Positions 2-10,674 of a stretch of DNA of 64,000 nt are shown here, piece by piece; positions within the stretch are counted from its first letter, which is position 1, and every line of letters begins with the position of its first letter. Under the pieces are notes generated by a model, which did not search any database, was not told where the DNA came from, and saw only the letters and a program-made list of their open reading frames with translations. The position numbers and the translations under genes are program-made. The DNA is from an uncultured Acidobacteriota bacterium (GTDB taxonomy: Bacteria; Acidobacteriota; UBA6911): NCBI GenBank assembly GCA_963809485.1, contig CAWEJX010000001.1, forward strand, positions 128,001 through 192,000. The letters run 5' to 3'.

Positions 2-2071
2 AGCCAGGGAAAGCTCGTTGCCGATACGCGGACCAATGGCAGGGGGGAGTTTTCGCTGGTTTTGCCGGAAGGGGAATATAGGATGTCGGCAACCATGGCG
101 GGGTTTGCCGCCGTCAAGGACAGAATCGTGCAGGTGCCTTCCGAGACGGCCCCGCTGGAACTGACGCTGCAAATCTCATCGCCGCAGGAGCAGGTTGTCG
201 TGACGGCGACGAGGACAGAAACGCCGCTGTCGCAGATTGGCAGCAGCACGACAGTAATTTCCGGGGAGGCGCTTTCGCTGAAGGGCATGTCCTCGGTATC
301 GGAGGCCTTGAGGGAAGTCGCAGGAATTGCGGTCGTTCAAAGCGGCGGCGTGGGGACCGTGACATCCCTGTTCTTGCGGGGAGGCGAATCGGATTACACC
401 AAAATACTCATCGATGGAATTCCAATGAATGAGCCGGGAGGTAGCTACAACTTTGCCAACCTGTCCACCTCGGATATTGACCGCATTGAGGTGGTGCGCG
501 GTCCTCAGAGCGCGCTGTTCGGCTCGGATGCCATCTCGGGAGCCATCCAGATCTTCACCAAACGGGGAAAAGGCGAAGGATTGTCGCCCAAACCGTCGGT
601 AATGGTTGAAGGCGGCACCTATTCGACCTTGCGTTACGGCGGGGGGGTAGAAGGAAGCAGCAGCTGGATGGACTACTCGGCTTCGTTCTCGCGGATGGAC
701 ACCGACAATAACGTCGCGAACGGTTCCTTCAATCAGACAACCATTACGGGGAACCTGGGATTCCAGCTGTCCCGCAAAACCGAGCTTCGGGCTGTCTTTC
801 GCAGCGAGGCCGGCCGTTCGGGAGTCCCGGGGCCGTGGGCATTCGAGCGCCCTGATCTTGACGCCTATTACGAGCACAGGCAGGAGTCGGGGGCTCTCAC
901 CATGACTCATTTCCAGACGCCGGCGTGGACGCAAAGGCTCTCCTACACCGTGAACGATTCTCGCCAGTTCTCGGCGAACCCGCTGGATTCCGGGAGCTAT
1001 ACACCGCAATACCAGGGCCGCGTCGCCCCCTTTCCATACTCCGACTGGGTTTATGAACACCTGAACCAGACGCGGCGCCAGAAGGTGAACTATCAGAGCG
1101 ACCTGATCCTGCCCCGCGGGCACTTCCTGACGGCAGGCGTCGATTACGAACACGAATCGGGAATTGTGGGAGACCCCAATTACAATCCCGGCTCCGCCTC
1201 GCGGGATAATTACGGCGGATTTATCCAGGACCAGTGGGCTTTGAGAAACCGCCTCTTTGCAACTGCAGGGGTTCGCCTGGATCAAAACGACAGCTTCGGA
1301 TTTTACGCCTCTCCCCGTGTCTCCCTGGCACTGCTGGCACGGCCCGCCGACGCGAAAAGATTCTGGGGGATGACAAAAATCAAGGCCAATTTCGGCCTTG
1401 GCATCAAAGAGCCTACCCTTCTGGAGTCGTATAGCACGTCCATCTATTACATGGGCAATCCGGATCTTCGGCCGGAAAAAACGACCAGTTACGATGCGGG
1501 GATCGAGCAGCAAATTAACTCCGGCCGCGGCGTCCTGGAGTTGACCTATTTCCAGAATCACTTCCGTGACCAGATCGGCTTTTCGATAACCGACTACTCG
1601 ACCTTTGCCGGTTCCTACTTCAACATGGGAAAATCCCGGGCGCGCGGTATGGAGGCCTCCGCGCGATACGGTTTTCGATGGAACCTGGAGATCGGGGGGA
1701 CCTACACATTCCTGGATTCTGAAGTTCTGGAAGCCTCAGGCAGTTCCGATCCCGCGTTTGCCAAAGGGCAGGAACTCTTCCGCCGCCCCCGGCATTCAGG
1801 CTACCTGGATTTGCGCTGGAAGCCCGGACGTCTGACGTTGGGCGCAAGCGCAATCATGGTCGGATCCCGCGTGGATTCCGATTTTTCCGGACTGGGCATA
1901 ACGAGGAATGAAGGCTACAGCGTGCTGAACCTGATGGCGAATTTTAGGCTCATCGGCGATATGTCGCTCTTTGCCACGCTCAACAATGTCACCGACGAGT
2001 TCTATATGGAAGCGCTGGGCTATCCATCGCTGGGCAGGCATTTCCGCATCGGCCTGCGCGCCGGCTTTTAG
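2..2071 (+). CDS. TonB-dependent receptor, BtuB-like (5' end outside the window)
   Basis: Frame is open from base 2. It has a TonB-box-like VVVTATRTE, plug motifs (LIDGIP, IDRIEVVRGPQSALFGSDA), NPDLRPE and a C-terminal Phe. Confidence 0.9.
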   Translation, partial: SQGKLVADTRTNGRGEFSLVLPEGEYRMSATMAGFAAVKDRIVQVPSETAPLELTLQISSPQEQVVVTATRTETPLSQIGSSTTVISGEALSLKGMSSVSEALREVAGIAVVQSGGVGTVTSLFLRGGESDYTKILIDGIPMNEPGGSYNFANLSTSDIDRIEVVRGPQSALFGSDAISGAIQIFTKRGKGEGLSPKPSVMVEGGTYSTLRYGGGVEGSSSWMDYSASFSRMDTDNNVANGSFNQTTITGNLGFQLSRKTELRAVFRSEAGRSGVPGPWAFERPDLDAYYEHRQESGALTMTHFQTPAWTQRLSYTVNDSRQFSANPLDSGSYTPQYQGRVAPFPYSDWVYEHLNQTRRQKVNYQSDLILPRGHFLTAGVDYEHESGIVGDPNYNPGSASRDNYGGFIQDQWALRNRLFATAGVRLDQNDSFGFYASPRVSLALLARPADAKRFWGMTKIKANFGLGIKEPTLLESYSTSIYYMGNPDLRPEKTTSYDAGIEQQINSGRGVLELTYFQNHFRDQIGFSITDYSTFAGSYFNMGKSRARGMEASARYGFRWNLEIGGTYTFLDSEVLEASGSSDPAFAKGQELFRRPRHSGYLDLRWKPGRLTLGASAIMVGSRVDSDFSGLGITRNEGYSVLNLMANFRLIGDMSLFATLNNVTDEFYMEALGYPSLGRHFRIGLRAGF

Positions 2072-2468: not shown

Positions 2469-5400
2469 CTAAGGATTCAGCGTGATCTGATGGGTCTCCA
2501 AGGTGCGCGCGATGGAACGATCCACGTTGGCGATGGCCTCTGCCAGATTCGCGCGGGCGCGGACTTCGCTGATGCGCGCGATGACATAGCTGTTTTGCCG
2601 CTCGAGCACAAGATACATGGTGGTCGTGCCGGACTGGAACTGGCGCTGCTCGCTGGCATATTGCTCCAGCGCGCTCTGAGCAGCCATTTGCGCGGCATCA
2701 TATCGGGCGCGCGCCGAGTTCAGCTGTTCCAGCGCATTGCGCACATCCGCGGCTACGTACATTTCCAGCTGTTTCCTTACAAGCTGCAGCCTTCGGCCCT
2801 CCGCCAGGGCGGTTGCCGCATTCGCTTCAGCCGTGCGGTTGGACAGGGGCAGTGAAATCTGTATTCCCGCCTTGAAAGTCGGGAAGTTCCCGGCCCAGAT
2901 GTTATATAGCGACTGCCGGTTGCCCCCTATGAGGACTTCTGCCACCTGTCCTCCGGGAAAACCCGGGAATGGCGAGAACTCCTGGGCGTTCCCGCCAGAC
3001 CGGATGCCGTGGCGGTGCCGAACAGGTCCACCTGCGGCTTTTTCTGGTCCTTGTAGAAGCGCGTGTCGATTTTGTTGATATCCAGACTAATGGAGTTTCC
3101 GGACAACTCCGGACGGGAAGCCAACGCCTGTTTCAGGGCCTCTTCGAGCGGCGGCGCCGAAGCGTCCGGATTTTGCTGTATCTCGGGGATCAGCGCCTCA
3201 TTCCACATCGGATCTTCTGTGCCGCTCAGCATCATCTGCTTCAAATTATTCTCGGCCGCCGTCAGCGTTTCCTGCGAAAGCGCCAGGGTTTGCCGGTAGG
3301 TCGCCACCTGTCTCTGCGCGGCGATAATTTCAATCGGCGCCAGCAGCCCCTGTTCCACCTGCCGGCGGTTGCTTTCGTACTGCTCCGTGGCAAGCCTCAC
3401 GGCTTCGGTCTGCACTTCAAGGTTCTGCCAGGCATAGACCAGTTCCCAGTAAAACTGCACCGCCTGCGTGATCCGCTCGATCACCTTCTGGCGCAACTGT
3501 TCGGCGCTGAGATCCCGGTTTTTTTTCGCCACCAGCAGCGAGTGCCGCCCTGCGTCTATGCGCAGATCGCGCCAGAGCGGCTGGGTGAAATTCAGAGACA
3601 GCGAAGAAGGATACTGGGGATTGAGCGTGGTGAAACTGCTGTCGTTGGTCTGCTTGGAATCGTTGAAGGTCAAGCTGTAAGAAGTTCCCAGCCAGGGCGA
3701 GAGGCCGGTCAGTTTGGGCGTGAACGTGAAATCAGTCGAGGTGAGCTTGCCGCTTTCGGAACCGCCGATGATCGTGGCAATCGGTGTCTGGGTGCGGGAT
3801 TTGAACCCGTCCAGAGTGAAAACCGGATCAAAATAGCCTTTTGCGCCTTTTACACCATGCCCTGCTTTTTCAACGGATATATAAGAGATCGCAAGCTCCG
3901 GGTCATTGGCCAATACCCTTTCGATGGCCTCTTTTAGGGTAAGATTTGTTTTGCCCTGCACCCCGATTCGCGGAGCTATTTTAAACGGCTTCATCGGCTG
4001 CAAATCGACGGACTGCGGCAAGTCCGTCTTCAGAGCCGTCACGGGCGTTTGAGCCGGGGAGGCTGAAACAAAGACGACCCAAAGCGATACAATTGCTGCG
4101 GCCTTCGCCGCCTGTCTGGCCTTCCAGGGAAAAGTGCGGATGGAGCGCAGCCGGTTCGCCAGATCCTCCCAAAGGGAATAGAAAACTGGAACGGCCAGCA
4201 GCGTAAGAGCCAGACAGAGGGTCTGTCCGCCCGCCACCATGACGCCTATGGAGTGGTTGGTCGTTGCGCCGGCTCCACGCGAAAGCAAAAGCGGAATCAT
4301 GCCGCACACCAGAGCGAGGGTCGTCATCAGGATCGGCCGCAAACGGTCCCGGTTTGCCTGGATGATGGCCTCGTAGCGGTTCATTCCCGCTGCACGCAAC
4401 CCATTGGTGTGGTCGATCTGCAGAATTGCGTTCTTCTTAACAATGCCGAACAGCAGCAGCAATCCCAAGTCCTGAGAAGACGTTGATGCTCTGGGCGGTA
4501 ACGAGCATGGAAAAGAGACCAAAGGGTATGGCCAGGGGAAGAGAGATCAGAATCGTGACAGGGTGAATAAAGGATTCGAACTGGGCGGCAAGCGCGATGT
4601 ACATGAAGATGAAGGCCAGCGCGAAAGCAATCCCGAAATTGTAGAACAGCTCGTTCATTCTCTCGAGTCATACCGGAAGGGGCTCCTCTATAGTCCGGTC
4701 CCATGTTCAATCCCTGGACCAGGCGGTCAAAGCCGTTCACGGCAGCGGATTGGGATCCGCCGGCTAAAAGGTTGCCTGTGATTTCGACGATACGTTGCCG
4801 GTTGAGCCGCTTGACGGAAGATGGCCCCGCAGCTGGTGCGGCTGCGCACGACCTCGTTCAAGCCAACCGATCCGTTCTTGGTGGATGCCACAGTCAGCTT
4901 TTCCAAGCCCTCCAGTGGATCCGCGGAAACGATCTTCGGCCCGCACGACGACATCATATTGATCGTCGCCTGCGCTGAAGGTGCTGGCTGTCTGCCCGGC
5001 AACCAGAGTATTGAGCGCCTGCTGGATGTCCTGCACGGAAACTCCGAGGTCGGCAGCTCTCGATCGATCGATATCCAGACTTACTTCCGGTTTGCCGGTC
5101 CGAAGTGAACTGTCCAGGTCTCCCAAGCCGGGTATTGTTTTCGCCTGGGCGATGAGTTTATCGGAATACTCCCCGAGCTTTTTCAGGTCCGGGCCCTGCA
5201 GAAACGTACTGGATGTCGGACATTCCCGGCCCGCCGCCTCCCATCCCGGTCGCGGCGACAACCGATAGGAAGATATTGGAGGATGGTTTTTAAGGATGTC
5301 CCGAACCTTTGTAGCCATATCTTCGGACGACAACTTGCGATCTCCAATGTCCACGCAGCTTGACGAAAATTGAGGCTTCATTGATGGCTCCGCTGGAACT

Positions 5401-7207
5401 TCCGCCCACGGTCGTAAGAGTGTGGGTCACACCCTCCAGGGACCGGACGGTGCGGGCGACGCTTTCGGAATACTTTGTGGTTGCGGCCAGGGAGCTTCCT
5501 TCGGGAAGCCGTATGCTGATGTTGAATTGTGACTGGTCGTCCCTGGGGATCATGTTTTTGCCGATCATCATGAACAGAGGCGCGATGCTGAGTACAACCA
5601 GGAGACAGCCAACGACAATGGTCTTGCGGTGGCCCATGGACCATACCAATGCTTTCGTATAGGTGGTATCCAGGATTCGGAAAAAGCGCGTATCTTTCGA
5701 CTTGTGGCCCGAACTTATCGGCGGACGGCCGGACAAAGCGAGAACACAGCATGGGGGTCAGGGTGAAGGACACCAGCAGCGAAACAACCACGGCTCCCGG
5801 CGCAGGTGAAGCCAAAGGCGCCCAGAAACTTTCCCGCCATTCCGCCCATGAATCCTACCGGCAGAAAAACGGCCAGCAGGGATACGGTTGTCGCCAGCAC
5901 CGCAAGCCCGATTTCTTTGGTGCCGTGGACAGCCGCCTCGAAGGGCCCCATTCCCTTCTCTTCCATGTAGCGATAGATATTTTCGAGCACAATGATGGCA
6001 TCGTCGACCACCACTCCGACCATCAGCGTGAGGGCAAGCATGGTGATCTGGTTCATGGTGTAATGCATGATCGCCATGAGAGAAAAGGCGGAGATGATCG
6101 AGACCGGGATCGCGATGGCCGCGATCACCGTCGTGCGCCAGTTGGCCAGAAAGAAAAACAGGACGATGGCCGCGAGCAGGCTTCCCTCGAACAGGTGATT
6201 TCGGATGCCGTTGATGGCAGGCTTCAATGAAAATCGATCCGTCATTGATGATCTGGATTTTGACATCCTTGGGCAGAGTCTCCTGGATCTGTGCCAGGCG
6301 TTCCTTGACGGCGTGGACAACCTCCACCGTGTTCGTTCCCGACTGCTTGGAAATTGCCAGCTGCACTGCGGGCACACCGTCCAGCCGCACTGCGGTGGTT
6401 GGCTCCTTGGTGCTGTCCTTCGCAAACCCCATGTCGCTGACCTTAACCTGATAGCCATTTCTTGTGGTGACCACAACGTTGTTGAAATCGCCGGGTCTTT
6501 GATCTTCCCGGAAGTCCGGATCGTCAGATCCTCTGCGCCCGCTTTTCAGGCTTCCTCCGGGCATCTCCATGTTTTGAATTCTCAGACGCATTGAAGACAT
6601 CCGTGACCGATGAGATTGTAGGCGCGCAGGCGCTCCGGGTTGACGATGATGTGGATTTCACGATCCGCGCCACCCTGTATCTGGACCTGGCCGACACCCT
6701 CGCAGTTCTCCAGTCTCTGTTTGATCAGCTTGTCGGCGATCATGGTCACGTCGCGCGTGGAGCGGGGCGCCGATACGGCGATCTGCAAAACCGAGCCTGC
6801 ATCCGGATCCATTTTCGATACGACCGGGACTTCGGCGCTTGAGGGCAGCTCGTTGACAATCTGGTTGACCTTATTCTGGACTTCCTCGGCCGCGACGATG
6901 CCGCTCTTGGAAAGATCGAATTCGATCCGGACTACGGATATTCCTTCCGACGAAGTGGAGCTGATTTCATCCAGCCCGTTGATGCTGTTGACGGCATCCT
7001 CGATTTTCCTGGTGATCTCGGTCTCGATCTCCTCCGGTGAGGCGCCGAGATTCACGGTGGTCACGGCCACCATCGGAGCATCGACGTTCGGCATCCGGTC
7101 TACGCCGAGCGAAGAGTAGGTAGAAGATCCCGGCCACGACGAACGACAACATCAACATGGTCGCGAAAACGGGGCGCTTGATGCAGAGTCTGTGCTAATG
7201 CATGCAT
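2469..7207 (-). CDS. AcrB/HAE1-type RND permease fused to a C-terminal TolC-family outer membrane factor; broken by many indels
   Basis: Fragments read in order: [63 protein letters not shown]. These continue in frame into OMF motifs ([42 protein letters not shown]). Confidence 0.8.
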
Positions 7208-7228
7208 GATAAAGAACCCTTTCGGTTA

Positions 7229-8514
7229 TTAACGGGTAGCGATAGACGCCCCGTCGTATAAACTGGCCTGGTTATCGGTGACGACCGTCTCGTTCCCCGT
7301 AAGCCCGGTGAGAATCCGTAATCTGATCGCCGTCGGTGTCCCCTTTCAGGACAACATTCAGGTGGGCGACGCCATTGACCAACACTGTAAATGTGATTTG
7401 CATCGGTCGTGCTGTCGTAGAAAACAGCTTTTGCAGGCACGAAGACCGCCCGCTCCATGCCCGGCAGCATCAATTTTGCATTGGCGAACATGCCCGGGCG
7501 GAGTTCCGCTTTGGGATTCTCGAACCGGGCTTCGACCATGAATGCGCGTGAGCTTGGAATTTACGGAAGGCACAACCGCATGAACCTTGCCGGTGAAGTC
7601 CCGGTTCGGATACGCGGCGACGCGAGCCGTCACGGCCATGCCGGTTTTCACTTCGGCGGCGCGCTGTTCGGGAACCTTCAGCTGAAGCCGCACCGTGGAA
7701 ATGCGCACAAGAGTAGCCGACCTTGTTGTTCGTTCCCACCCATTGCCCGGCCGATACCGGCCGTTCGGTGATATACCCGTCGAAGGGAGCCCGGACCGTT
7801 GTGTCTTCCAGGTTCTTTTCAGCTTGCGCCAGTCTGCGATTCGGCGGCCGTCAGAGATGCCTGGGCAGCCTCGATTGCGCGGTAGTTCTGGCGCGCTGCG
7901 TTGACCTGCGCCTCGTATTGTTTCCGGGCGGAATTGGCCGCAGCTTCAGCCGTCTGCTGCTGCGTTTTGAACTTTTCGTAGTTGCTTTGGGAAACGTCCC
8001 CGCTCTTGACCAGGTTTGCGTATCGCTGCGCGTCCGCGGCCGCCAGCTTGGCCGATGCCAGGGCGGATTCATAGGCAGCCATCGACGACGCCACCTCCGG
8101 AACCAGATCGGGATTGAAATCGCCGTCGCCGCTCCAGCCGACCCTTGATTGCGCCTGGTTCAATAGGAATTTCGCCTGCTCCCGGCCCGCCCGCGCCTGT
8201 TCAAGCCTCAATTGTGCATCGCGCTGTTCCAGGACGCAGATGGCCTGTCCCTTTCGGACATAATCCCCCACCTCAACGGGCGTCGATGCCACTCTTCCGC
8301 CGATTGCGGGCGCGACATCCGACGACTCCTCGGCAATGAACGCACCGGTCGCCTGGAAAGAACTCGGGACAGACCGAACCGCGGCCTTTGCTACAGTTAC
8401 GACGGGCTTTTGCGTCGCATCTTCCTTGGTTGAGGCGGGGCCACTTCGAGGGGGGCCAGGACATGCAGTCATAGATAAAACGATAATTAACAATGAAACG
8501 TAAAATCTGATCAT
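7229..8514 (-). CDS. RND periplasmic adaptor (MFP) lipoprotein, frameshifted
   Basis: Lipobox MTAC, lipoyl half-motif GGRVASTPVEVGDYVRKGQ, coiled coil, LRPGMFA, C-terminus LYDGASIATR. Spread over several ORF fragments. Confidence 0.85.
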
Positions 8515-8532
8515 ATCCAACGTTTTGCCTTT

Positions 8533-9255
8533 CTATGCATTCACCGGGCGCCCGGCATGAGATTCAGGAGACACCGGTCTGTTTCGCCTGCGGGCAGGCT
8601 TACTGGATGCCCTTAACCCACCCAGGATCAGGCGTGTGAAACTCTCCGCCAGTTTCCCGTCCGACAGTTTGAGGCGATCCACCCCAAAGATGCTCTTGGC
8701 GAGCCCGTAATAGCTGGGCATGCTCAAGATCGCATGCACGGCGACATTGGGATCGCATTTTGCGAAGACGCCCTTTTTCTGCCGCTTCGTGATGTAATCG
8801 CAGATAAAATTATGCAGCGGCAGGACCCGCTGAGCCATGATTCTGGGCAGTGGATGCCCGGTCAGCACCGCCTGGTACATCAGCCTTTGAAACTGCGGTT
8901 CCTTCCGGTGCGACTGCAGTATTCTCTCCACCATCGATCGGACCAGGGCTTCGTCGTCCTCGCGCTCGGCATACCTACGCAGCTGCCCCTCCCACTCCTC
9001 CATCCCCGATTCCTTAGCGGAATAGTCGAGGATGTTCTTGTAGAGTTCCTCCTTGGTCGCGAAGTGCTGGAAGATGATGCCTTCGCTCACGCCTGCTGCG
9101 GCCGCGATGGATTTCGTGGTTGTCCCCTCGAATCCCCGCTCCGAAAATAATCGGACCGCAATCTTAAGCAGCTGTTCCCGGCGTTTTTCGGCCGGGAACC
9201 GTTTACGCCCCGGCGGCGGTTCCGGAGCCTGCGCACCCGTAACATTCATCTTCAT
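8533..9255 (-). CDS. TetR/AcrR family regulator
   Basis: HTH LFSERGFEGTTTKSIAAAAGVSEGIIFQHFATKEEL; first gene of the efflux operon. Confidence 0.93.
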   Translation of the reverse strand: MKMNVTGAQAPEPPPGRKRFPAEKRREQLLKIAVRLFSERGFEGTTTKSIAAAAGVSEGIIFQHFATKEELYKNILDYSAKESGMEEWEGQLRRYAEREDDEALVRSMVERILQSHRKEPQFQRLMYQAVLTGHPLPRIMAQRVLPLHNFICDYITKRQKKGVFAKCDPNVAVHAILSMPSYYGLAKSIFGVDRLKLSDGKLAESFTRLILGGLRASSKPARRRNRPVSPESHAGRPVNA

Positions 9256-9277
9256 ATGTGTCCGTTCCCTCATCTAT

Positions 9278-9570: not shown

Positions 9571-10674
9571 TTATTTGAGCGCCACCAGGCCCAGCTTCAT
9601 CAGCTTTTCCAAAACGCGGAGAATCTCGAGCTCTCTCAGCGGCGAAAGCATGACGATCGATTTGACATCCCAGGTCCCGTTGATCCGGGATGCCACGAAC
9701 CCTTCCTCGTGGGTCAAATTATGCCGGGTTAGCGACGATTCGGGAACCAGGAAATAGGGCACTCTTCCCGCCGGGATCGGTCCCCGGTAAAATTCCTGGC
9801 AAATGGCTTTTTCCGCCTGCTCGATCTGCTCGGAGGCCAGCACATTCTGGGGATCCGCCTTGAGCACCTCCTGAAAAATGGAAATCGCTTCGTGGAAATT
9901 GTGGCGCTGCATGCACTCGAGGCCTTTGTGGAACAGCTTCGCAGGGGTTTCCACTTCCGGTGCAGGATGAACAATTTCTTTGATTTCGACGATGTCCTGT
10001 TCGTAAAGCTGAAAAAGCTCAAAACAGACCCAAAAATCCGAGCCGTGCATTTCCAGTATGATTTCGGAAATGGGTTTCTTAAGGGTCAGGAGAAACAGCA
10101 GTTTTTTCTGCAGGGGGGAAAGGCTGAGGCTCTTCAAATCCGCCTGGGGGCGGAGCGACAGCACCACGTCGTTGCTGGGGAACACCGACCGGATGCGGGC
10201 CCACTCGTCTTTGCGGCGGATGCCCTCGAAGATGAGGGAGTTGATATCCATTTTGATCAATATCAGATCGTCGAGATCATATTCGCCGGCCGAAAAGTGA
10301 AAGTAGCCTTCGTCCCACAGGAATAAGTCGTAGATGACTTCTTCGGTCCGAGTGATCAAGGCCTTTTCCACATCTTCCCGCGAGACCAGTTTTTCCTGGA
10401 CCAATATTTTGCCCAAAAGCGCCCGGGATTGGAGGTGGATTTCAAAAGCCCGTTTGAGCTGGGATTCTGTCAGTTTGCCCTGAAACAGCAGGAATTGTCC
10501 AAGTTGCTTGGTAGGATCGTTCGAACGGGAAGAAATGATCTTCCCATCCTTTAAGTATATATAAACTTTAATTTTATCCTTGACGAAGGCGAGCGCGCCG
10601 GTCTTCCGTCCAATGGTGACCCATTGAAGGACTTCCGGCAAATCCATGGTTTTCAGCCTTCCCGAGAGCGACAT
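9571..10674 (-). CDS. DUF4388 (PatA_N-like) domain protein with TPR
   Basis: MSLSGRLKTMDLPEVLQW..KTGAL, LGQFLL, VIYDLFLWDEGYFHF, EGIRRKDEW; TPR-like EAISIFQEVLKADPQN. Confidence 0.85.
   Translation of the reverse strand: MSLSGRLKTMDLPEVLQWVTIGRKTGALAFVKDKIKVYIYLKDGKIISSRSNDPTKQLGQFLLFQGKLTESQLKRAFEIHLQSRALLGKILVQEKLVSREDVEKALITRTEEVIYDLFLWDEGYFHFSAGEYDLDDLILIKMDINSLIFEGIRRKDEWARIRSVFPSNDVVLSLRPQADLKSLSLSPLQKKLLFLLTLKKPISEIILEMHGSDFWVCFELFQLYEQDIVEIKEIVHPAPEVETPAKLFHKGLECMQRHNFHEAISIFQEVLKADPQNVLASEQIEQAEKAICQEFYRGPIPAGRVPYFLVPESSLTRHNLTHEEGFVASRINGTWDVKSIVMLSPLRELEILRVLEKLMKLGLVALK

Follow-up and report, generated by a model that had tools for sequence, protein, structure and literature searches.

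The pump-channel gene and its operon

The window analysed here is a 64,000-nucleotide stretch of a contig from an uncultured member of the Acidobacteriota. On its minus strand it carries a gene (2469–7207) in which a resistance-nodulation-division (RND) permease runs in frame into a TolC-like outer-membrane factor (OMF). The permease part extends from an ATG at 7207 to the end of its last helix (4160–7207) and is matched in pieces by PF00873, over profile positions 23–1019. The final 14 residues of that helix (4201–4160, read from the translation of the fused frame) lead into a linker with the layout of a signal peptide. Its translation gives a basic n-region of 19 residues (4103–4159), expected to be cytoplasmic, then a hydrophobic core of 14 residues (4061–4102) and a c-region reading S-P-A (4060–4052) that is followed by Gln at +1 (together 4049–4060); signal peptidase I is predicted to cleave between 4052 and 4051. 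The channel part (2469–4051) starts with QTPVTALK (4051–4028), closes with a stop codon at 2469–2471 and is matched by PF02321 (OEP) on both of its frame pieces. A first-pass annotation, made from the letters of the window, had described this in-frame run from the last AcrB-type helix through a basic stretch, a core and an S-x-A site into the OMF, and the minus strand from 4201 to 4028 reads exactly so.

A 539-residue open frame (2927–4546, minus strand) spans the junction, passing from the last RND helix through the linker into the channel, and matches both PF00873 (ACR_tran, positions 920–1019 of 1021, E = 1e-33) and PF02321 (OEP, E = 1.9e-26). Between 4051 and 4200 the minus strand has a stop in none of its three frames, ATG or GTG nowhere and no TTG in the fused frame, in agreement with the first-pass annotation. 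The treatment of 2469–7207 as one gene frame did not survive: the interval is not a single open reading frame (ORF) under translation table 11, the RND part being broken up into eight or more frame pieces and the OMF part shifting frame near 2987. Relative to the closest intact relative, the orthologous gene of genome G006, there are no indels between window positions 2987 and 4469.

Two further genes complete the operon. The first, an intact gene for a TetR-family regulator (8533–9273, minus strand; PF00440 TetR_N, E = 3.5e-16), precedes that of a periplasmic adaptor of the membrane fusion protein (MFP) type (7227–8520, minus strand, 3′ end approximate), which in the window is in frame pieces and is recognised by PF16576 (HlyD_D23) and PF13437 on the piece 7358–7945. 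G006 has its TetR gene in the same place upstream of the adaptor, and its adaptor orthologue is intact, with 426 residues, a TIGR01730 (RND_mfp) score of 232 bits and a lipoprotein-like MTAC start. An adaptor gene thus adjoins the RND gene, as expected of a tripartite efflux system, both by the profile match in the window and by TIGR01730 in G006. We read the locus as a TetR-adaptor-RND::OMF efflux operon whose fused gene probably specifies a polyprotein that is cleaved into pump and channel. The parts themselves (HAE1-like RND permease, adaptor, TolC-like channel and TetR regulator) are ordinary; what sets the locus apart is the single frame with an internal signal peptide.

The RND–OMF fusion is real in this phylum, because uninterrupted frames occur in independently assembled relatives and many proteins combine ACR_tran with OEP. 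Since automatic open-frame lengths can run through stops, only frames that we translated ourselves were counted as fused. Among 24 genomes drawn from the genus of the window, 13 hold uninterrupted fused genes of 1561–1592 residues, and two more same-genus copies, cut by contig ends, are also fused across the junction. Among 401 genomes drawn from the phylum, fused frames were translated in G320, G347, G261, G271, G411, G072, G302 and G101, which represent five other Acidobacteriota families, and also in G001 and G014; with G331 included, the fused form covers six families. The G331 gene (L050, same genus) appears to be fused through a masked stretch, in which its linker reads as X. A scan of named contigs returned five loci, all from metagenome-assembled genomes (MAGs) of uncultured Acidobacteriota and all matching across the junction.

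Protein searches gave 264 matches with the G006 protein as query and 583 with that of G347, from a Vicinamibacterales-type clade (both at E ≤ 1e-3, lengths of about 865–2750 residues); among the matches listed, 240 of 240 carry PF00873 together with PF02321. The annotation had proposed a search for ACR_tran+OEP homologues of roughly 1550–1600 residues, and many were found, at about 1560–1620 residues. It had also argued that a single indel is unlikely to have created the fusion; the retention of the junction in independently assembled relatives shows that it is more than chance or a local error. None of the close relatives has a stop and a separate start at the junction, which favours the fusion; in some distant relatives a stop is present, which does not. 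Several candidates were set aside: ten loci with large reported open frames (including G113, G215 and G391) are really split by one or two in-frame stops, and the long frame of G390 is a spurious GC-rich frame. At G010 (C20:42854–43183), an RND C-terminal match lies in a reported open frame of 1402 residues, longer than a normal RND protein; it could represent a further fusion, or a reported frame that runs through in-frame stops.

The RND part of the G006 protein is matched end to end by PF00873 (residues 5–1008 on positions 2–1019 of 1021; 917 bits). As first proposed, it is HAE1-like rather than CusA/CzcA-like, with 864 bits to RND_permease_2 (NF033617) versus 428 bits to TIGR00914. It scores 606 bits against TIGR00915; all three of these models stay below their curated cut-offs, so no equivalog can be named. 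In AcrB, the proton relay consists of an Asp pair in helix 4, a Lys in helix 10 and an Arg in helix 11. The window frames contain DRLRPILMT and a 23-residue segment that resemble the AcrB motifs and may correspond to them.

For the channel part of G006, PF02321 recognises two OEP stretches (131.5 bits). A sequence search of solved structures matched only CmeC, at E = 1e-4, and a match this weak made a fold search necessary. The AlphaFold2 model of the channel part has a pLDDT of about 90, and Foldseek aligned it with E. coli TolC (1ek9 and 2xmn) at TM-scores of 0.74–0.75 on the target and a probability of 1.0. As modelled, the channel part is a complete TolC fold. The linker core of G006 was predicted by AlphaFold2 as a short isolated helix at low confidence. 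A second model, of half the RND part with the linker, had a mean pLDDT of 63 with the linker below 50, too poor to be informative on how the core packs against the pump.

Frame breaks in the window copy

The closest intact relative, the 1575-codon gene of G006, is 90.5% identical to the window copy at the DNA level. Alignment of window 2469–7207 to this gene gives 17 indels, all of a single base (14 insertions and three deletions), of which 16 lie in the RND part and the remaining one is the deletion near 2987 in the OMF part. In a longer alignment, single-base insertions cluster at 4469–7832, with the deletion at 2987 in addition; those of the adaptor gene fall within 7318–7832, and the regions flanking the cluster have few indels, which appear to be intergenic.

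We consider the 17 frame breaks very probably to be local errors of assembly or polishing, and not decay, because dN/dS is only 0.08–0.1, in-frame stops are absent and the insertions are mostly outside homopolymers. With the indel columns removed, the amino-acid identity to G006 is 93.5% and the frame is free of stops, while dN/dS relative to G006 comes to 0.095 overall and to 0.082 where the indels are dense. Ten of the 17 indels do not lie in any base run, and the inserted base is C in nine of 14 cases. Of the 17 places, 12 have the frame-restoring form in contigs of relatives from four public soil and wetland runs (mostly 90–99% alike).

The alternative, that the window holds a genuine decaying pseudogene operon with both the adaptor and the RND::OMF gene inactivated by frameshifts, draws on the number of indels in the fused gene, on the further ones in the adaptor and on the other long ORFs of the window being intact. 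Natural decay would, however, add substitutions, stops and larger deletions, and what is found instead is a stop-free frame with a dN/dS of 0.08–0.1 once single-base indels, 14 of 17 of them insertions and most outside homopolymers, are taken out. Moreover, four of the eight RND loci in the genome to which the window belongs (G000) change frame, and this genome is a MAG of 21 contigs (95.7% complete, 7.3% contamination). We therefore regard a pseudogene as unlikely.

Some observations do count against assembly error. Since long ORFs elsewhere in the window are intact, any errors would need to be confined to this region. Of the 12 places at which public-run contigs carry the frame-restoring form, six also have some contig depth in one run that lacks it, as the pseudogene explanation would have it, and five of the 17 indel places are not among the matches listed for the public-run contigs. 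The contigs compared at the indels come from relatives of the source strain and cannot serve to polish it; none of the public runs contained even a fifth of the sampled words of the source strain, the best share being 0.14. The window copy needs polishing before any annotation. Single-base insertions, mostly of C and mostly outside homopolymers, cluster in adaptor and RND genes, both in the window and on the G000 contigs C8, C15 and C6, with the neighbouring genes intact, a distribution which suggests mis-polishing of multi-copy or strain-variable genes.

The linker and the fate of the channel part

The linkers of the fused proteins have the sequence features of a substrate of Sec and signal peptidase I, namely a positive n-region, a short core and small residues at −3 and −1. 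The position is unusual: the signal peptide, instead of lying at the N-terminus, starts some 1010 residues along the chain, behind the twelfth RND helix. In a first clade, the n-regions of 122 non-redundant linkers have net charges between +3 and +8 (median +5), and a median of 17 residues, c-region included, separates the last basic residue from the site. A scripted search placed a site in 121 of these, with Ala (67), Gly (47) or Ser (7) at −1. At +1 it found Gln in 112 and Ser, Leu, Phe, Ile or Glu in the remaining nine; the window itself reads A|Q. A (−3,−1) site followed by Gln is therefore present in 112 of the 122 linkers, compared with 19% of control windows taken from the same proteins, and in 83 of 86 non-redundant linkers of a second clade. 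We also considered a NodT/OprM-type lipoprotein subclass for the channel and rejected it, as a lipobox Cys at +1 occurs in 0 of 121 linkers.

In an alignment not anchored on the site, conservation within the linker is highest at a Lys where the n- and h-regions meet (89%), an Ala (87%) and the Gln at +1 (81%), with the positions of the hydrophobic core variable. The segments from RND tail to channel fall to 26–43% identity across the clades examined, and across these clades the n/h/c pattern is kept, with a small residue at −1 and then Gln, so that the conservation which the first-pass annotation had proposed to look for is present. Stand-alone OMFs of the phylum look the same: [AGS]|Q closes 18 of 20 of their signal peptides when judged by eye (16 of 20 by script), and the last basic residue stands a median of 18 residues from the site, against 17 in the fused proteins. 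Because these conserved features and this length match those of stand-alone OMF signal peptides, the linker is, judged by its sequence, the signal peptide that belongs to the channel, and it remains constrained as a cleaved one would be. G000 encodes two signal peptidase I homologues (PF10502).

Several points weaken this case. By itself the (−3,−1) rule is uninformative, since 94% of control windows satisfy it, and it was discarded as evidence; the argument stands on the Gln at +1 together with charge, length and the resemblance to the signal peptides of stand-alone channels. Ten of the 122 and three of the 86 linkers do not show the scripted Gln motif, and several of these read T|Q or A|E. 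The second-clade figure covers 86 of 120 proteins, the RND end of the other 34 having escaped the pattern used to locate it, and the counts in general overstate the support, since related sequences are not independent.

We propose that translation yields a single precursor of about 1575 residues comprising the RND permease and the TolC-like factor, in which the twelfth RND helix would insert first and leave its C-terminal end in the cytoplasm. The linker would then work as an ordinary Sec signal peptide: its basic n-region would stay inside, the 14-residue core would enter the translocon in an N-in/C-out orientation, and the channel part, roughly 525 residues, would be threaded into the periplasm. 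Signal peptidase I would cut after S-P-A and release a channel that begins with Gln, possibly cyclised to pyroglutamate, and that continues to the outer membrane, while the signal peptide would remain on the pump as a thirteenth membrane segment. Translocation and cleavage in this manner would yield equal output of the two subunits, at a 1:1 stoichiometry. Overall, a polyprotein that signal peptidase I cleaves at its internal signal peptide, together with assembly errors as the source of the breaks in the window, is the reading we think probable from the sequence data. A bolder extension, in which the fusion amounts to more than the loss of a stop codon, seems unlikely to us: the signal peptide would escape degradation and persist, covalently joined to the pump, as a thirteenth helix with a periplasmic C-terminus, and synthesis of three channel protomers on an RND trimer would template or time the trimerisation of the channel and its hand-over to the outer membrane. 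If true, a machine spanning both membranes would be put together co-translationally, as on an assembly line.

A different outcome would follow if the precursor stayed uncut, with the core as a permanent thirteenth helix and the channel tethered to the pump, so that the two components were physically coupled. The topology would allow this, because an N-in/C-out segment after helix 12 puts the channel in the periplasm, and some linkers are long: the distance from the cleavage site to the RxG motif, where the confidently folded channel starts, ranges from 10 to 74 residues (median 22), and the window has about 38 residues before the first channel helix. At the short end, G011 and G017 have only about 10 residues between the site and the folded channel. 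Ten residues cannot span the periplasm, given the dimensions of AcrAB-TolC and of the cell envelope, so in such members an uncut channel could not reach the outer membrane. An anchor, moreover, would need neither the small residue at −1 nor the Gln at +1, which are among the most conserved columns of the linker; the core residues vary freely. The uncharged stretch (median 17 residues with the c-region) also has the length of a signal peptide and resembles those of stand-alone channels. A lasting tether is thus unlikely.

In a further alternative, the channel would be made separately from a start codon inside the linker, and the fused frame would be no more than two translational units that overlap. 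An in-frame ATG, GTG or TTG does occur within the n-region of 13 of 24 fused genes, and in G072 and G101 a Met is kept exactly where a stand-alone signal peptide would start, so that separate initiation may take place in these two. Where start codons exist, however, their positions are not conserved, and 11 of the 24, the window included, have no in-frame ATG, GTG or TTG from the RND end to the core, so internal initiation cannot be the general route. The RND frame is also free of a stop, and the fusion protein would therefore be made in any case. We hold a general internal start to be very improbable.

That the fusion itself is a sequencing or assembly artefact, through a lost stop or compensating indels at the junction, is scarcely credible even though the window assembly is error-rich in precisely this region: 15 same-genus genomes, assembled separately, share the in-frame junction, as do hundreds of metagenome proteins of several origins, a contig from public run X5 bridges window 3300–4375, and the 2987–4469 interval is indel-free relative to G006.

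Split forms, precedents and wider context

Fused and split forms coexist in the phylum. An RND gene followed by an OMF gene with a tiny gap or none is a common arrangement in Acidobacteriota, and the split pairs of G391, G113, G274 and others encode homologous proteins in the same order, with a channel signal peptide ending in A|Q. Many split RND/OMF pairs (L044, L034, L071–L077) share one reading frame, parted by one or two stops. In G391 (L044, 5991–5996) the RND stop TAG is followed directly and in frame by the ATG of the OMF, an arrangement in which one substitution would fuse the genes. A tree of the RND part needs at least three changes between fused and split states; it comprises 26 rows from the top matches and was built by a quick method with SH-aLRT support only. 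The genes of G072 (L039) and G101 (L078) have a longer linker that retains the former channel start, as Met-Phe-Lys before the core, and may be young fusions or capable of an internal start.

The canonical tripartite systems AcrAB-TolC and MdtABC-TolC of E. coli and MexAB-OprM of P. aeruginosa have the same three components and the same TetR/adaptor/RND/OMF operon logic. Their components are encoded by separate genes, whereas here RND and OMF share one frame with no stop, and often no start, between them, and the signal peptide of the channel lies inside the protein, behind 12 membrane helices. OprM is a lipoprotein, unlike the channel described here. Among open-access papers and preprints we found no description of a natural RND–OMF fusion.

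The nearest mechanistic precedent for the proposed cleavage is FbcH of Bradyrhizobium japonicum, a single precursor of cytochrome b and c1 that is divided at an internal signal peptide. There, too, a polytopic inner-membrane protein leads through an in-frame signal peptide to an exported subunit with which it forms a complex. Neither FbcH product leaves the inner membrane, whereas the channel here must reach the outer membrane and trimerise into a β-barrel. In the parts consulted of a 2021 Chem Rev review of tripartite systems, no passage on a natural fusion of this kind was found. SecDF of Thermus thermophilus, whose halves are both inner-membrane parts that stay joined, with no internal cleavable signal and no change of membrane, is a natural fusion of two partner genes within the RND superfamily (PMC8277102).

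The residue after the cleavage site invites a second comparison. The Q-rule of Bacteroidetes describes signal peptidase I sites that are followed by Gln, which is cyclised to pyroglutamate (PMC5837995), and fused linkers and stand-alone channels here nearly always have Gln at +1. The abstract of that paper presents the rule as specific to Bacteroidetes, and the word Acidobacteria is absent from its main text (PMC5837995). Gln right after the site is near universal in the OMFs of Acidobacteriota. A crude scan of 302 signal-like N-termini in G000 found Gln to be the commonest +1 residue after [AV]-x-A (68 of 302, 22.5%), compared with 3.6–7.3% at +2 to +7 and with a 4% background. A glutaminyl cyclase of the PF05096 class was not found in G000, in a search that covered that cyclase class only.

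Tripartite efflux pumps are textbook machines of separately exported parts, and a natural polyprotein would be a new route for their biogenesis. If the proposal is true, one chain gives both the inner-membrane pump and the outer-membrane channel by way of an internal signal peptide after twelve helices, and the fused genes would allow the handling of internal signals by Sec and signal peptidase I to be studied in a case found in nature. The fused form is common in Acidobacteriota, a dominant phylum of soil. Databases name the fused proteins only 'efflux RND transporter permease subunit' or 'HAE1 family' (HAE1 in JGI), and as the labels mention only the permease, channels are under-counted and pump lengths mis-read.

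On either side of the operon, the window holds a TonB-dependent receptor gene with Plug and β-barrel domains (62–2071, plus strand) and a gene for a DUF4388 protein with a TPR motif (9571–10674, minus strand); the operon of G006 is flanked by the same DUF4388 gene.

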